DNA from: Phycisphaeraceae bacterium | GTDB lineage: Bacteria > Planctomycetota > Phycisphaerae > Phycisphaerales > Phycisphaeraceae | Assembly (NCBI GenBank): GCA_963674705.1 | Contig: OY771506.1 | Location: forward strand, 1,792,001-1,856,000 | Direction of reading: 5' to 3' | DNA length: 64,000 bases | Part shown: one piece after another, positions 15,001 to 27,000 of the stretch | Layout: each line of letters begins with the position of its first letter | Position numbering within the stretch: the first letter of the stretch is position 1 | Made by a program: the position numbers

Positions 15001-18000
15001 CTTGTTCATCAGCTCGATCGCGTCGCGGATCTTTTCATCCGTGATCTTGGTGTTGAACTGCTGTTCGAGTTTGGTTTTCAGTTTGTTCAGTTCGATGCGC
15101 CAAAGCGCAAGCGAATCGGGGTCGTCCGGCTTCTGTGGCAATTCAAGGATGTAGACCGGGCGAGATTCGGCCATCAGTTCGTACATCTTCTTCTTGCCGT
15201 CGCAGGTTGTTTCGGCAACGATGAGGTCCGCCATCTCGAGGAACGGATTGTTCTTCTGCATGTGATAGCCGAACGTGCTCTTGATAAGCGGGCACAACCC
15301 GGCGGGCAGAACGGACTCGGCGGCGAGCGCGGTTGTGTGTGATCCGCCACACAAACAGACGGGCACGGCTCCGGCGGCGAGGATCAATTCGCGTGGCGTG
15401 AACTCGCAGAGGATGCCGACGATCGGTTTACCATCGGCCTTGGCTCGCTCGGTGTAGGCCAAGCAGTTTTGGATCATATGGTCAAATCGGCAGGCGTTGG
15501 CGGCCGGGTTATCCACCACTGTTTGGGCGCACGCGTCTGTCGCGTTTGAGGTGCATGCGCACGGATTTGAACTCGGGCAGCAGTCGCTCATGATCAGGCC
15601 TCCCGTTTGTGCGCGATGAAGCGCGCCTGGATGATCCGCTTCTCGTGCGCCAAGGTGCGCACAAACCCAAGCTCGCCGGCGATCTGCTGTAGCAGCGATT
15701 GATCGAAGCCGATGATCTTCAGCGCATCGTACGTCAGTTGTTTACTGACCATATCTATATAAAGATCGACATGCGGCGGGAACTGGCCGGTGTCGTCGGC
15801 TTCGAGGACGTCGCAGTTGTTGGCTTCAAGCAGATGCCGATAGTCATCGCATGTGGCGAAGGAGGGGAACTTCATGAAGGCGAGGAAACGCTGGGCCTGC
15901 TCATCAGACAAGCCGGCGGGGCCCTCGCACCAGTCGGTGAAGGCGATGGTGCCCCCGGGCTTGATAAGGCGAGTGGCTTCTTTTATAAGCGATGGTTTAT
16001 CATCAACATAGCACCACGCGTCCTCGCCCCAGACAAAGTCGAATTGCCCGTCGGGCAGGCCGGTATCGATCGCCTTGGCGAGTATGAACGTGGCCCGATC
16101 GGCGTAGCCCTCGTCGGCGCAGCGTTGCTTGCCGAGGTCGATCATGGCCGAGGTCATGTCGACGCCATGCATCCTGTCGACATCGCGGAATCGAAGCAGG
16201 AACCGCATGCCCGCGCCGCTGCAGCAGCAGAGGTCGACGCCGGTGGTTTGGGGCTTGATTTGGGCCTTTTCAGCGAGATGCATGGAGGAAGTCAGCCCGC
16301 CGATGTGGATCTGCTCGCCCATAAGCAGTTCCCAGAGCTTGCCTTCGGCCCCGCTGTAGACAGTTTGGATGTCGGATGATTGGATCGAGTCAAGTGAACG
16401 CATGCTGGCTCCCGGGATTGATGCATGGTCGGAGTCGGTCCCGCCTCGGGGGATTGTACCAAGCTGCCGGCTATAAAGATATTGCTATCTGCAATAGGCG
16501 AGGCTATATTGGCGGGCATCTGAGACAGAGTCACGCATCAGTAAAACGAAAGGGGGCCGCAACATGCAACGTTTGATATGGTCATGCCTTACGGTGACGG
16601 CGGCGATTGTTGTATCCGCTGTGCCATCACCTGGTGGAGGCTCGGTAAGCGCAGCGGACGAAGCGCAGGGCGCGACGTGGCTGAGCTACTACCACAGCCA
16701 GGATGCCCGCAAGCGCCTAGGTTACGCGATCGGCGCGCGTGGGATGGAGATGACCGAGCAAAAGCCGGACGGTTTGAAACTGCCGGCGGACATCGGCGAG
16801 GACGTTCGGTACGGCAAGTGGGACACGCCGATGGATGAAGCGGGCTTCCGGTATGTGGCGCTTGCGCGCAGCGCGTACGGGCAGCTTTGCGATCAACTTG
16901 TCATCGATTCCGATGGTGACGGGCAACTCGATGATGAAACGATCTACGGCACGTACAACCTGCGTGTGTACGGCAGCGCGCGAGGTCGTGTGTACTTCGA
17001 TCCGGTTGCGATCGAACTTCAAACCGAAGACGGCCCGACGCTGTATCACTTGAACGTGAATGTGTATTGCGGCGGTCCCGGTTCGTACAACGTGACATAC
17101 AATGCGGGCGGCTGGTACCAGGGCACGGTGATGCTCAACGGCGAGCCGTTCGATTGCCAGCTATTGGACAACAACGCCAACGGCACGTTCAACGATACGT
17201 GCGAAGGTGATGAAGGATATGGCGACACCGATCGCGTTCGTTTCGGCGCTGCGAATACCGAAGCGATGATGACCGGGCATTACGTGAAGAACGCGGACAA
17301 ATTTTACGCGTTCAGTGCGGCGAAAGATGGCGCGTATGTTACGGTGAAAGATGCGGACGGTTTAGCGGTCGGCAAGATCATTGTGCCGGAGGACTTTGCG
17401 TTCGTGAAAGTGTTCGGACCGGAGGGTTCGTTCAACATCAAGGCCGACAGCGATCAGGAAGTGCCTTGCGGCGACTATCATCTTGTCGCCTGGCAGCGCG
17501 AGGTGAAAGATGTGGCCGGCAAAGACTGGCGCTTCAACGGCGGCGGTTTCCCGGAACATGAAGCGATTGAAGTTGGGACGGATGAGCCGGTCACGCTGGC
17601 GCTGAGCGATCCGTGGAACGCAAAGATTACGGATTATGAACGGCCCGGCCGACACACGTTCAACCAACAGATCACCGGACGCTACGGCGAACAGATCAGT
17701 GCGTCTTATTCCAACGGCGGCCGACCCCCGGCGCCGAGGATGCACATCGTCAGCGAGGATCAGCAGTACGAGCGGACGTTCAAGTTCGAGTATGGGTGAG
17801 GCGGGACCTGTTCGCTCTCATGGCGAGAGCCTTACAACCAGGTCGGCCCCTACACCGCAACCCTTCTGCTGGACTATCCGGTCCAGATCGAATGCGAAGA
17901 TCTGATCATCGGCAAAGCTGCTGAGGATGCTTCCGAAGCAGACAATGCTGTCACGTTGAATGAATAACAGCGTGGCGGCTGTGCTGTGGTGTGTGCGGTG

Positions 18001-24000: not shown

Positions 24001-27000
24001 GCGCGGTGTTGCTTGAATGCGAGGTTGAGCCGGCGCTTGATGCATTGAAGCAGCGAGAGGATGTGGTGGCGCTGGATGATCGGCGCGTGTTGGCGAAGCG
24101 CGTGATCGAACGCGCGGGCGAGAAGATTGTTGAGCGGTTGCGTGAAGAGCATGCGGCGAATCCTGATAAGTTCGGCTTGACGACAGCGATATTGGTTAAC
24201 GCGCTTGAAATGGATGGGGATGTTGCTGCGAATGCGGTGGCGGGGTTGTGCGATAGCGGCACCATGACGCGGCAGGGGGAGTTGCTTGCGCTGGCGGAGC
24301 ATCGGCCTGCGATCAGCGCGGCGGATCAGAAGTTGCTTGATGCGATAGTTGATCTATATAAGAAGGATCACTTCGCGGCGAAGCGGCCGAGCGAGGCGGC
24401 GGAGGCGCTGGGCGAGCCGATGAAGCGCGTGCAGCCGATGGTGAAGATGCTGATCGAGCGTGGGGATCTGGTGAAGCTGACAGACCAGATCGTGATGCAT
24501 CGTGACGCGGTCACGGCGGCGGTGGGCGTGGTGCGGGATTTGTTTGAGAAGTCAGAGCGCTTTTCTACGGCCGAATTCCGCGATGCGCTGGGCGCAAGCC
24601 GTAAGTATGTAATCCCCTTGCTTGACTATTTTGACCACGAACGTCTGACGATCCGCCACGGCAGCGAGCGAAAGCCCGGGGCAAAGTTGCGGGAAGAGGT
24701 CGGCTGAAAAGACATGAGATTTTATTGTATTATGTGGGTAAGCAACTACAATGGTGGACAGTTGCCGCGGCGGTTTTGCCGTGATTCCGAAAGGGTTTTT
24801 TGTGATTGTATTACGCCGATTAGCCGCTGCGATGTTGCTGGCCGGCGGTGTAATTGTGTGTGCGGATGTGCAGGCGGAAATCAGTTTCCGTGCTGCTGAC
24901 CCGAGGGCGACGTTATGCCACGCGCCGCGTGTGGTGGATACGTTCACAGCATCATCGGCGGGGAGGCTGAGCAGTTCGGCGGTGGTGGGGACATTGAATA
25001 CACATTACGGGCCTATCCATGTCGCGATCGATCCGCGCGGCACGAGTGAGCCTTACAACGTGACGTTTGATTTCACCGGCACGGGCAGGTTTGAAGACCC
25101 GACCGAGGTGCGCGTCATCGCACGCAAGCATGGCGACTACTTCTGGGGTGAGTTGACGCCGACGGTCGTGGAACTTTCACGTGGCGGGCATAAGATCAGC
25201 GTCGGCATCATGGGGATGGTGTATCGCTCAAGCGACAGCCAATCGGTCGATGTGATGTTCGGCGCCATGATGGAAACGTCGTGTGCGTTCGGCTCGCAGA
25301 CGCTTGATGTCGACATTATGGACGGCGATCAGAACTTCTACTTTGGTGATAAGTCAGCAAAGCGCGGGTTCAAGGTCGAGGTCGGCGACACACTGGTTGT
25401 GCATAAGGACAATCAACGGTACATGGTTTTGGTCGGCCAGCCGGTGCAGATCGATGGTGCGTGGTACGACATCGTCGTGCATGAAGATTATTCACTTGAA
25501 GCGAAGCCTGTGAATATCACGGTGGGCAAGTTACAGATCGATAAGGGCGACTGGTCCGCGATCTTTGTCGGCAGGCGGTATGTCTGCGGCGCAAAGGGTG
25601 GGACGGAGGCGGTCACGCTGCCGGCTGATTCTTACACCATCGTGCGCTACGATGAACGCAGCGGCACCGCGATGGTGTCGTGTCAGAGTGATAACGGCCC
25701 GAGCGCGTCGGTGCAGGCTGGACAGACGGCGCAGGTGAGTATCGGCACGCCGATCGCGGGCATCCCGGTCATGTTCCAGCAGGGCGATACCGTCAGCATC
25801 CGCGCGAAGATGATCGATTCAAGCGGGATGAACGTGACGGAACTTCGGCTTGAAAGTGGATTGCGTCCGGAGCCGCCTGTCGTGGCGGTGTTTGATAGTA
25901 GCGGTCACGTGCTGCATCAGGCCGCACTGGAATATGGGTGAGGTGGCATATGTTCGCACTCATGGCGGGTGCCATCCAATGCAGGCCGGGGCGGATCGCT
26001 GACAGCGGTCATGAAGTACGAGGCGAAGCCGTTCACGGTCAAGCTCGGACGGACGGACTTCAACGTGCGCTGAATTATTTTGTGATTCACACGCGCGGCA
26101 GCGCGCAGGCGCAGGCACAATCGCAATCCTGTTTACTTTTCCTTTCCTCTTTCCCCCTTAAAACAACATGAAAATTGACTACACCAAGCGACGCCAGGTG
26201 ATGGCCCGATCGCGCAAGCTCGGGCATTGTATTTGTGATCCACGCAGGCCTTGCCCGTGCGATGTGTTTACCGAGCAGGGCATCTGCCCCTGTGCCGGGG
26301 AAAGGCCGGACCCGATCCCCGCCGATCAGGTGAAGCTGACGGACCTGGTGCGCAACGCAGGTTGTGCATCGAAGATTGCGCCGGGCGATCTGGATACGGT
26401 GTTGTCGCGCTTGCCGGAGATCACGGACCCGCGCGTGTTGTGCGGCGTCGCGGCGGGGGACGATGCGGGTGTGTATCAACTCGATGGCGAGTGCCTGGTG
26501 CAGACGGTTGATGTGATGACGCCTTGCGTAGACGATGCGCGGATGTTCGGGCGGATATGCGCCGCCAATTGCGTGTCGGATATTTATGCGATGGGCGGGA
26601 CACCACGTTCCGCGCTGAGCGTTCTTGCTTTCCCGACAGAAACGCTTTCCGGGCAGATCATGTACGAGATGATGAGCGGCGCGATGGAAGTGCTGGCAGA
26701 AGCAGGTGTCGCGCTGATCGGCGGGCACAGTATCAAGGACGAGCAGATCATGCTCGGCTTTGCGATCACCGGCACGATCGACCCGAAGCGCGTCACACAG
26801 CGCGGCACCGCGCGCGTCGGCGATGTCCTGGTACTGACCAAACCGCTAGGCACGGGCGTATTGAACTTTGCACGCCAGATCGGTAGAGCGCCGCAGGAAG
26901 GTTTAGCACAAGCGGAAACCTCAATGGCGACGCTTAACCGTGCGGCCGCGGAAGCCATGGTGCAATGCGATGCCTCTGCATGCACGGACGTCACCGGTTT

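Follow-up and report, generated by a model that had tools for sequence, protein, structure and literature searches.

An undescribed family of probably exported proteins with a predicted beta-sandwich domain, very likely selenoproteins, encoded beside the selenocysteine machinery of a Phycisphaeraceae bacterium

Genes of the locus

The window, that is, the whole stretch of 64,000 nt analysed here, contains selA, selB, selC and selD together with two paralogous genes, A and B, and a second candidate selenoprotein gene (Table 1). Each paralog has a single internal TGA, located in the motif G-U-GGxC-x-x-S-W-R-x-P, where U is the inferred selenocysteine (Sec). The Sec-site sequences are FEYG-U-GGTCSLSWREP in A and LEYG-U-GGICSHSWRVP in B. 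The preliminary description regarded both genes as truncated at a Sec-encoding UGA, with 55 and 43 further codons, and translation bears out the codon counts. The two proteins can be aligned over 55 residues only, in the Sec-bearing domain, which is Ig/MG-like and forms the C-terminus of A. What they have in common is not the whole protein but a modular domain of some 100 residues.

Table 1. Features of the locus. All coordinates are positions within the 64,000-nt window.
Feature	Position	Strand	Remarks
Divergent unit	11058..16403	-	SAM methyltransferase, three HGD-D/double-cubane-type proteins, activator ATPase
Paralog A	16564..17967	+	467 aa, Sec at codon 412; signal-like N-terminus, all-beta body; SLSWREP subtype
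In-frame TGA of A (inferred Sec codon)	17797..17799	+	followed by 55 codons to TAA
SECIS-like hairpin of A	17814..17830	+	6-bp stem, 5-nt loop AUGGC, within the S-L-S-W-R-E-P codons
CarboxypepD_reg-repeat protein, exported type	18048..20450	+	C-terminal TlpA/thioredoxin-like domain, QRSS replacing CxxC
Terminator-like hairpin closing A and CarboxypepD_reg pair	20476..20507	+	consensus match only
selA	21189..22604	+	TIGR00474 518.6 bits, cut-off 267.9
selB	22764..24707	+	TIGR00475 305.6 bits, cut-off 242.25
Paralog B	24751..26073	+	440 aa, Sec at codon 397; SHSWRVP subtype; exact start codon uncertain
In-frame TGA of B (inferred Sec codon)	25939..25941	+	followed by 43 codons to terminal TGA
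SECIS-like hairpin of B	25956..25972	+	6-bp stem including one G-U pair, loop AUGGC
selD fusion	26168..27748	+	TIGR00476 339.2 bits (over cut-off), PF02627
Fer4_5 (NapH/MauN-like) membrane Fe-S protein	28254..29114	-	PF12801
Second candidate selenoprotein, one-helix membrane peptide	29128..29490	-	ends D-F-C-P-T-U-V-K-stop, TGA 29137-29139
tRNA-Sec (selC)	29572..29664	-	

Both paralogs had been placed inside the Sec operon. This is correct for B, which lies in the selB-selD run with gaps of 43 and 94 nt, but not for A, which forms a pair with the gene after it; between A and selA lie the terminator-like hairpin and 738 nt. The start of this next gene (ATG 18048) was picked by its ribosome-binding site, the longest open reading frame beginning at 17991. 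Its orthologs are found in 11 loci downstream of an SLSWRxP gene, within about 520 nt. The thioredoxin-like domain of the encoded protein matches Thioredoxin_2 at E 0.042 only, and CxxC is absent from this domain in all 15 copies seen. The selD product consists of a Cys-rich N-terminal extension, a Cys-form SelD and a C-terminal CMD/AhpD domain, a layout kept in most of 16 orthologs. In the divergent unit, NF040772 is over cut-off for 14350-15591 only (418 bits), and TIGR00241 is found at 11058-11852.

The gene of the candidate C-P-T-U peptide precedes the Fer4_5 gene and has a 7-bp hairpin downstream. The ending C-[PAS]-[TS]-TGA, followed by one or two codons and a stop, was found in 14 of 15 loci and then in 30 of 30 further loci; the peptide has no NCBIfam match. 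The Fer4_5 ortholog is present in 44 of 401 genomes of the class; 39 of the 44 have the TGA family as well. Families f8, f17 and f20, whose 59 sampled genomes mostly have selB without the domain, yielded no such ortholog.

The UGA codon and its hairpin

The UGA in A and B very likely encodes selenocysteine, with a probability of about 0.97. Paralog A is the highest-scoring read-through among the 1673 genes of its own genome that end in TGA and have at least 5 open codons downstream. Among the domain matches listed for the class genomes, 143 of 150 hold one TGA, and a DNA pattern permitting any TGN has TGA in 153 of 153 matches from Planctomycetota, Verrucomicrobiota and other phyla. The frames stay open for at least 37 codons past the TGA. 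In 31 of 89 complete frames the continuation exceeds 62 codons, and in 18 of these 31 it reaches multi-helix membrane domains.

The other reading is that the UGA is a true stop, or directs insertion of another residue, with the sequence beyond it forming a conserved RNA element or a separate gene. It agrees with the 86 of the best 150 database homologs (domain-only profile) that terminate exactly at the Sec site, and with two TGA genomes, 97% and 94% complete, that have neither selB over cut-off nor selA. However, the truncated entries stem from gene callers, and a stop would remove three strands of the predicted domain and, in the 31 genes noted above, long tails too. Moreover, a stop at this site would never be TAA or TAG. 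With TGA ending 2134 of its 4642 called genes, this genome shows no general reassignment of the codon. In addition, cysteine aligns with the UGA position in 18 of 62 read-through homologs. Two Cys-form genes (L030 and L169) have TGC at the site and belong to genomes without selA and selB, and their hairpin is lost. The earlier statement that the usual Sec/Cys pairing was missing therefore falls, and the stop reading is very improbable. The remaining 44 of the 62 homologs have neither Cys nor Sec at the site; the domain thus occurs in forms that lack a redox centre as well.

The hairpin had been described as following the UGA by 17 nt. The hairpin itself is confirmed, but this distance was counted from the first base of the codon; with the T of TGA as base 1, the stem comprises bases 18-23 and 29-34, and the 5-nt loop begins 20 nt past the codon. 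The claim that compensatory changes keep the stem is upheld: pairing is 98.9%, with compensatory changes in 4 of 6 pairs. None of 500 shuffles reaches this level, and slid controls give 22-68%. All six positions are paired in 149 of 153 family matches, whereas among 48 metagenomic sequences that match a similar Cys pattern by chance, none reaches 5 of 6 pairs. The codon choice at the stem is also restricted, serine being TCA or TCG in 148 of 148 cases (315 of 977 upstream) and arginine CGA in 134 of 151 (115 of 1026 upstream).

Bacterial SECIS elements are stem-loops 16-37 nt downstream with a loop of 3-9 nt and a stem of 4-16 bp (PMC13188914), and the covarying family hairpin (6 bp, 5-nt loop, 20 nt) is within these ranges. 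The published consensus has G in the first two loop positions (PMC13188914). The loop starts with G in 114 of 153 cases and with A-U-G-G in the other 39, both window genes included, so these 39 conform to the rule only when UGG is taken as the loop.

Distribution, fold and known families

The domain is present in 65 of 401 class genomes, with up to 11 matches per genome, and in none of 16 sampled genomes of the same family. In a second phylum, centred on a Verrucomicrobiota-titled record, it was found in 7 of 251 genomes, and all 12 matches there have TGA. It also occurs in records titled BRC1, Hydrogenedentota, Riflebacteria and Acidobacteriota. Contrary to the first suggestion, the family is not restricted to Planctomycetota. 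Among the class genomes selB is present in 56 of 60 TGA genomes and in 144 of 401 overall, counts that include related genomes and are not independent samples. It lies within 20 kb of the family in 41 of these 56. Two of the four TGA genomes without selB over cut-off have selA. All five genomes reached via named loci have selB, and in three sampled families the TGA domain occurs in all 13 selB genomes. Conservation, covariation, the Cys pairs and the co-occurrence of selB together strongly suggest that SelB and tRNA-Sec read the UGA, directed by the hairpin that lies 20 nt past the codon.

By a permissive hydrophobicity criterion, 78 of 89 frames have signal-like starts, and the family proteins are probably exported or membrane-anchored. 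The predicted structure of the domain (pLDDT 94.3) is an Ig/macroglobulin-like beta-sandwich, and three of its strands follow the UGA. Comparison of this model gave Z 8.2 for an alpha-2-macroglobulin MG domain (rmsd 2.4, 75 aligned) and Z 9.7 for a cytokine-receptor FnIII domain, scores at the level expected for a common arrangement. Paralog A has no Pfam or NCBIfam match, and B has a weak match to MG2 (PF01835; E 0.0076, 17 bits, Pfam cut-off 32.8 bits). Pfam gives only MG2 and PKD_6 for 34 members, below cut-off, the MG2 matches being weak and limited to 3 of 34 (best E 0.0014). The MG2 domain, unlike this family, has no Sec/Cys hairpin. No NCBIfam (20.0) family is over cut-off for A or B, and for the 34 domain copies the best E is 0.049.

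The DUF1573 domain has an Ig-like fold. A DUF1573 selenoprotein is among the 119 bacterial selenoprotein families tabulated in PMC13188914 (Table 1), and it resembles the present family in that Sec lies in a beta-sandwich domain and the proteins are probably exported. However, its motif is UGC and not U-GGxC, and none of the 34 members matches PF07610 (DUF1573) at E 0.05. The motif G-U-GGxC / S-W-R-x-P is absent, on a reading of the 119-family table, from the families listed there, and the family is uncatalogued among known selenoprotein families. It shares with SelB/SECIS-decoded bacterial selenoproteins the in-frame UGA, downstream hairpin, Cys homologs, selABCD co-occurrence and truncated database entries. 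The tabulated families are mostly thioredoxin-fold proteins or metalloenzymes, whereas this one is a probably exported modular beta-sandwich in many copies. The core of the earlier claim, an undescribed exported all-beta family tied to the Sec machinery, holds on independent tests.

Putative redox function

The most likely role, to which we give about even odds, is that of an exported redox module of the selenol/thiol type, which would be reduced through a relay in the membrane. Cys is found at +4 from Sec in 32 of 36 Sec sites of a protein search (it is lacking in 4) and in 12 of 18 Cys forms. An AhpC-TSA/Redoxin fusion occurs in 7 of 12 scanned Cys forms, with CxCxxC in 6 of the 7. After export by the signal peptide, Sec is predicted to be located in a turn between two strands, four residues before Cys. 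The motif suggests that Sec could attack the oxidised sulfur or selenium of a substrate, either in the periplasm or at the cell surface, and then form an Se-S ring with Cys. Gene context points to re-reduction of the ring from the cytoplasm via the Fer4_5 protein and the C-P-T-U peptide or, alternatively, by a thioredoxin of the TlpA type; in Cys homologs such a thioredoxin is fused to the domain. This context may, however, simply reflect clustering of selenium-dependent genes. The CxxC-less thioredoxin-like neighbour would be a scaffold or substrate-binding partner and not an electron donor.

In the N-terminal Ig-like domain of DsbD and in the ScsB/CcdA relays, a two-cysteine hairpin outside the membrane is reduced via a thioredoxin-like domain and a membrane carrier. 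This layout is the functional model proposed for the new family, which differs in its spacing (x3 and not x5), its Sec, its separate genes and its membrane partner, a Fer4_5 Fe-S protein. The DsbD/ScsB N-terminal domain gave no sequence match in Pfam, nor among PDB sequences at E up to 1, and the rhodanese/DsbD-like TsoB model none among 34 domain copies. We propose tentatively that the cluster may be a self-contained selenium-based transmembrane electron relay, a DsbD/CcdA analogue built from separate parts by two uncatalogued selenoprotein families. Electrons would pass from the cytoplasm to the Fer4_5 protein, the C-P-T-U peptide and the exported U-GGxC Ig domains. Because 60 carrier genomes yielded no Sec formate dehydrogenase, this relay might also be the main reason why these lineages keep the Sec machinery.

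The cluster is similar to the SAO operon, which also combines several selenoproteins with NF040772 double-cubane proteins and an activator, and whose SaoC has a C-terminal Sec before a nearby second stop, resembling the C-P-T-U peptide (bioRxiv 10.1101/2022.07.06.499078). In contrast to SAO, the selenoproteins here are probably exported beta-proteins and selABCD lies within the cluster. No model of the nine Sao families is over cut-off among 12 window and 15 further proteins, nor on the 34 domain copies. In that work, Haft and Gwadz link double-cubane proteins to a proposed Sec-assisted handling of organometallic compounds. By analogy, the family could be soft-metal or metalloid chaperones, whose U-x3-C site would bind an organometallic or Se/As compound on the outer side of the membrane and pass it on for uptake by a DUF3034 outer-membrane protein and an NMT1-type ABC transporter, followed by double-cubane reduction and methylation. 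Near the family, genes of the divergent unit occur in 15 (double-cubane, DCCP), 9 (methyltransferase) and 9 of 74 loci, DUF3034 in 5 and the ABC binding protein in 3; the last weakly matches SaoX (E 1.6e-06, far below cut-off). CC replaces CxxxC in some Cys forms. We consider this role doubtful: Cys homologs are fused to redoxin, the domain has no His-rich stretch or extra conserved metal ligands, and many copies bear LamG, F5/8-like or membrane domains unrelated to uptake. In addition, double-cubane genes accompany SelD genomes generally (bioRxiv 10.1101/2022.07.06.499078), so their adjacency is not specific.

A structural role is unlikely. Here a fixed Se-S bond, or cross-linking of surface proteins such as the CarboxypepD_reg-repeat neighbour, would serve adhesion and envelope or appendage assembly. 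The close association between the SLSWREP subtype and the repeat protein, the 11 matches in one genome, the generic Ig/FnIII/MG fold, the DxDxDG-type loops in the N-terminal part, the anchors and glycan-binding domains of many copies and the many homologs without Cys or Sec at the site are all consistent with it. However, a structural bond gives little reason for TGA in nearly all copies and a whole Sec machinery, most of the known selenoproteins catalyse redox reactions (PMC13188914, section 7), and the Fer4_5/C-P-T-U pair suggests an electron supply.

Read-through adds the putative catalytic motif and, in about one third of the genes, whole membrane or glycan-binding domains. The SECIS stem is a clear example of amino-acid covariation imposed by RNA structure (Tyr/Val, Leu/Glu and His/Val across the stem), and the family is useful for SECIS models, which A-U-G-G loops partly escape. 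With this family, a probably exported, modular, multi-copy beta-sandwich joins a selenoproteome in which thioredoxin folds and cytoplasmic metalloenzymes predominate. The family offers an answer to why many Phycisphaerae-class genomes retain selABCD without Sec formate dehydrogenase and, if the relay model is true, it would represent a new route of reducing power to the cell surface.

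Reading frames and conservation of the internal TGA

Translation with table 11 stops paralogs A and B early, at an internal TGA that lies in both genes within EYG-TGA-GGxC-S-x-S-W-R-x-P. The two proteins can be aligned only over about 55 residues around this codon, with an identity of 35%, which makes the common unit a domain at the C-terminal end. Searched with a profile of this domain, the genome yields two copies, A and B alone. Paralog B sits within the selB-selD run. Downstream of A and the repeat gene lie a terminator-like hairpin and 738 nt. The GC content of the cluster (57.8%, genome 56.6%) gives no sign of recent transfer.

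Features of the window
Feature	Position	Strand	Remarks
DDE_Tnp_1 transposase	10027-10920	+	adjoins the end of the double-cubane unit; cluster without GC shift
Paralog A	16564-17967	+	467 aa on read-through of TGA at 17797; 55 codons beyond
Repeat protein (CarboxypepD_reg)	18048-20450	+	belongs to a family with a TlpA-like end, DxxQRPSR for CxxC
Intergenic region	20451-21188		738 nt; long hairpin, repeated elements; short motifs resembling these also near 27760 and 29790
selA, selB, selD fusion	between and after A and B		all above NCBIfam cut-offs
Paralog B	24751-26073	+	440 aa on read-through of TGA at 25939; 43 codons beyond
SelD fusion	26168-27748	+	N-terminal extension, C-terminal CMD/AhpD domain
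Fer4_5 protein	28254-29114	-
CPTU peptide	29128-29490	-	unannotated, one-helix membrane; ends C-P-T-TGA-V-K-TGA
tRNA-Sec	29572-29664

TGA terminates 2134 of the 4642 called genes of this genome and is therefore not generally reassigned. Paralog A scored highest among 1673 read-through candidates. Because it skipped tails shorter than five codons, the scan did not pick up the CPTU gene; further selenoproteins may thus exist in this genome. A repeated 189-aa frame ending NYFRSCGYAT-TGA, found in at least nine places (e.g. C1:367897, 963924, 1743496), is probably an insertion-sequence transposase.

In the sample of 401 genomes of the class, paralog A as query matches 63 and the domain profile (34 sequences) 65, with up to 11 matches per genome; none of the 16 other genomes of the same family is matched by the profile. 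Among 150 listed of the 178 profile matches, 143 have one TGA and seven have no stop. A DNA pattern in which the codon was left free as TGN gave 153 distinct matches, at least 137 of the stretches being from GTDB genomes. The codon is TGA in all 153, and the frame stays open for at least 37 codons past it in every one. The record titles name Phycisphaerae, Planctomycetia, Brocadiaceae, Verrucomicrobiota, BRC1, Hydrogenedentota, Riflebacteria and Acidobacteriota; one locus titled 'Actinomycetes' was left out as evidence for that phylum. A second phylum sample has matches in 7 of 251 genomes, with TGA in 12/12. The Cys at position +4 is kept in 32 of the 36 Sec sites from a search made without requiring it.

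The SECIS-like hairpin and the residues at the site

Counting the T of TGA as 1, bases 18-23 pair with bases 29-34 around a 5-nt loop, R-U-G-G-M. Over 73 distinct sequences, 98.9% of the hairpin cells are paired and both sides have changed at four of the six pairs (50 cells). The covariation score was reached by 0/500 shuffles, and slid control hairpins were 22-68% paired. Since the shuffle test can be inflated by relatedness, two further controls matter. The Ser codon of the stem is TCA or TCG in 148/148 cases, compared with 315/977 among codons further upstream in these genes; the Arg codon is CGA in 134/151 compared with 115/1026. At least five of the six pairs form in 152/153 family matches and in 0/48 chance matches to a similar pattern. 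These 48 are metagenome stretches from a scan for Cys-codon forms, none of them convincing as a member of the family; the best scored 22.5 bits, and most were short frames. The hairpin is gone in two Cys-codon genes, whose genomes have neither selA nor selB.

The preliminary description held that a Sec/Cys pair is missing, and this is refuted by a search with the domain alone. Against 1.84 billion representatives, 1209 proteins were found at E 0.001; the best 150 of these comprise 86 that stop immediately before the site (83 with YG as last residues), 62 that read through it and two partial sequences. Among the read-through homologs, Cys occurs at the site more often than any other residue (18/62), with C-x3-C retained in 12 of these 18. 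In the remaining 44 the residue is Gly, Ser, Leu, Arg or another, and a few of these are unrelated repeat proteins. One base change from TGA reaches the residue in 46/62, which suggests repeated loss of Sec; some cases may be sequence errors. In locus L171 (G315:C2) and the database homologs P0017, P0020, P0021 and P0024, Ser (TCA), Gly or Leu stands at the Sec site in an otherwise intact motif.

A redoxin domain is fused in 7 of 12 scanned Cys homologs, with CxCxxC in six of them; the predicted complex between the Ig domain and the fused redoxin domain of one, P0031, scored 0.03. Some copies without Cys occur in fusion with a BlaR1/M56 peptidase, T2SS G or protein kinase domain (P0029, P0085, P0108, P0155, P0157), which makes the domain an extracytoplasmic module in signalling-type proteins as well.

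Selenocysteine machinery and its possible clients

SelB is above cut-off in 144 of the 401 class genomes. Of the 60 genomes that have a TGA match, 56 carry it, and 41 of these 56 have a family gene no more than 20 kb away, counts in which kin genomes are not independent. In three sampled families (f16, f23, f24) the TGA domain is present in 13/13 selB genomes. SelA is missing from four genomes in which all forms are non-TGA, and selB is present in two genomes with such forms alone. Among the four TGA genomes without selB above cut-off, one has selA above cut-off and another has part of selA where a contig ends. In the other two (genes G064:C47:167-478 and G238:C22:2605-2910; genomes 97% and 94% complete) neither selA nor selB was found above cut-off, and these count against decoding as Sec; misbinning, assembly gaps or dying genes are options. 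From the conserved in-frame TGA, the covarying hairpin, the Cys pairs and the co-occurrence with the machinery we infer that Sec is inserted at the TGA, with a probability of about 0.97. That the TGA is a true stop, as table 11 has it, is extremely improbable.

Other possible clients were scanned as the molybdopterin family in carrier genomes, those holding the TGA form, and as SelD and AhpC-TSA in this genome. In 59 carriers, a stop is present in 0/34 molybdopterin-family matches; 33 of the genomes lack any match. This genome has one weak match, without stops, 0/17 AhpC-TSA matches with a stop, and a Cys form of SelD. Of 47 genomes that have selB and lack the family, 38 match the molybdopterin family; TGA is seen in four matches, and many alignments begin past the point where it could be seen. 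One genome, G283, marked as unpublished, is counted only in the denominator of 401. These scans suggest that the family may be the main Sec client of carrier genomes.

The SelD fusion has a conserved N-terminal extension, C-x-C-x5-C-P-C-x8-C-x-C, which together with the CMD/AhpD domain may form a built-in reductive selenium delivery module. A suspected likeness of the Cys cluster to ferredoxin-thioredoxin reductase gave no Pfam match. In this genome only, the fusion ends S-C-C-TGA-MGEKN.

Predicted structure, gene neighbourhood and possible role

The AlphaFold2 model of mature A (Cys for Sec, 50 sequences) has pLDDT 94.3 and pTM 0.89 and is nearly all beta, and the domain alone gives pLDDT 90.1. 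Sec lies in a turn before strand 386-391, with three strands after it. A VIA search with the domain model returns generic FnIII, macroglobulin and CBM sandwiches (best Z 9.7; alpha-2-macroglobulin MG domain Z 8.2), and 3 of 34 domain copies have weak Pfam MG2 matches. The DsbD Ig domain is absent among the best 50 structure matches listed. The domain fold search gave no match at E 0.001, and whole-protein Foldseek gave poor alignments only (TM ≤0.15). A loose hydrophobicity rule assigns signal-like starts to both paralogs and to 78 of 89 complete frames, and to none of selA, selB and selD. Fold and export are both predicted properties.

The N-terminal parts of the proteins are short or long. 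The domain is last in 58 of the 89 frames and is followed by multi-helix membrane domains in 18, by one to three helices in six and by soluble tails, e.g. LamG, in seven. In L030:1486-2085 and L033:1963-3459, the Sec/Cys domain is continued by a membrane domain that has a conserved D-V-C-C-A-H-G motif and no match in Pfam or NCBIfam.

Neighbours were counted at 74 loci, many on short contigs, after six overlapping duplicates were dropped. They include selA (18), the selD fusion (16), selB (16), the Fer4_5 membrane protein (15), double-cubane proteins (15), the CarboxypepD_reg-repeat protein (13), an activator ATPase (9), a methyltransferase (9) and DUF3034 (5). The repeat protein lies within about 520 nt 3' of an SLSWRxP-type gene in 11 loci, and its C-terminal TlpA-like domain has Q-R-P-S instead of CxxC in 15/15 copies seen. 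Members of this family lie in L035, L054, L064, L085, L100 and L103, in tandem in some loci. DUF3034 adjoins the methyltransferase in five loci, an NMT1-type ABC transporter occurs in three and a PNPOx-like protein in three (L038, L041, L078, L102, L110; L053, L067, L078); none of these is inside the cluster of the window.

The Fer4_5 ortholog is found in 44/401 genomes, 39 of them carriers. It is absent from families f8, f17 and f20, where selB is mostly present and the domain is not. Directly upstream of the ortholog, a one-helix membrane peptide ends in C-[PAS]-[TS]-TGA, one or two codons and a second stop in 14/15 loci and in 30/30 further ones. Most of the further loci have a 5-nt-loop hairpin at nearly equal spacing, and in the orthologs it overlaps the Fer4_5 start. 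This CPTU peptide, which has no NCBIfam match, is a candidate for a second selenoprotein family, with a C-terminal CxxU; the assignment is less secure because no Cys form was seen.

No such motif was found by reading Table 1 of PMC13188914 (119 families), and NCBIfam 20.0 has no match beyond E 0.049 for A, B or the 34 domain copies. YGUGG/UGGTC are absent from the accessible text of the four deep-Sep supplementary files (PMC12013277) and of BSepDB with its supplement (PMC13326102), where there is no trace of the family. Literature searches gave no description of it; Haft and Tolstoy 2025 (PMC12013261), compared via the review table and NCBIfam, may mention it in passing. The family, its exported modular form and the partner peptide appear to be new, and the decoding itself is ordinary.

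The double-cubane neighbours bear on one possible role, that of a soft-metal or metalloid chaperone feeding double-cubane chemistry. Such chemistry is proposed for SAO in the available part of a preprint (bioRxiv 10.1101/2022.07.06.499078), and double-cubane proteins are linked to selenium also in that of PMC10418091; we regard this role as doubtful, and one in structural cross-linking as unlikely. For the favoured role, a redox module outside the membrane, the chances appear about even. Its U-x3-C turn would cycle between the selenol/thiol form and a Se-S ring, acting on oxidised sulfur or selenium compounds outside the membrane. The ring would be re-reduced via the Fer4_5 protein and the CPTU peptide, or via a TlpA. 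The Ig domain of DsbD works in much such a way.
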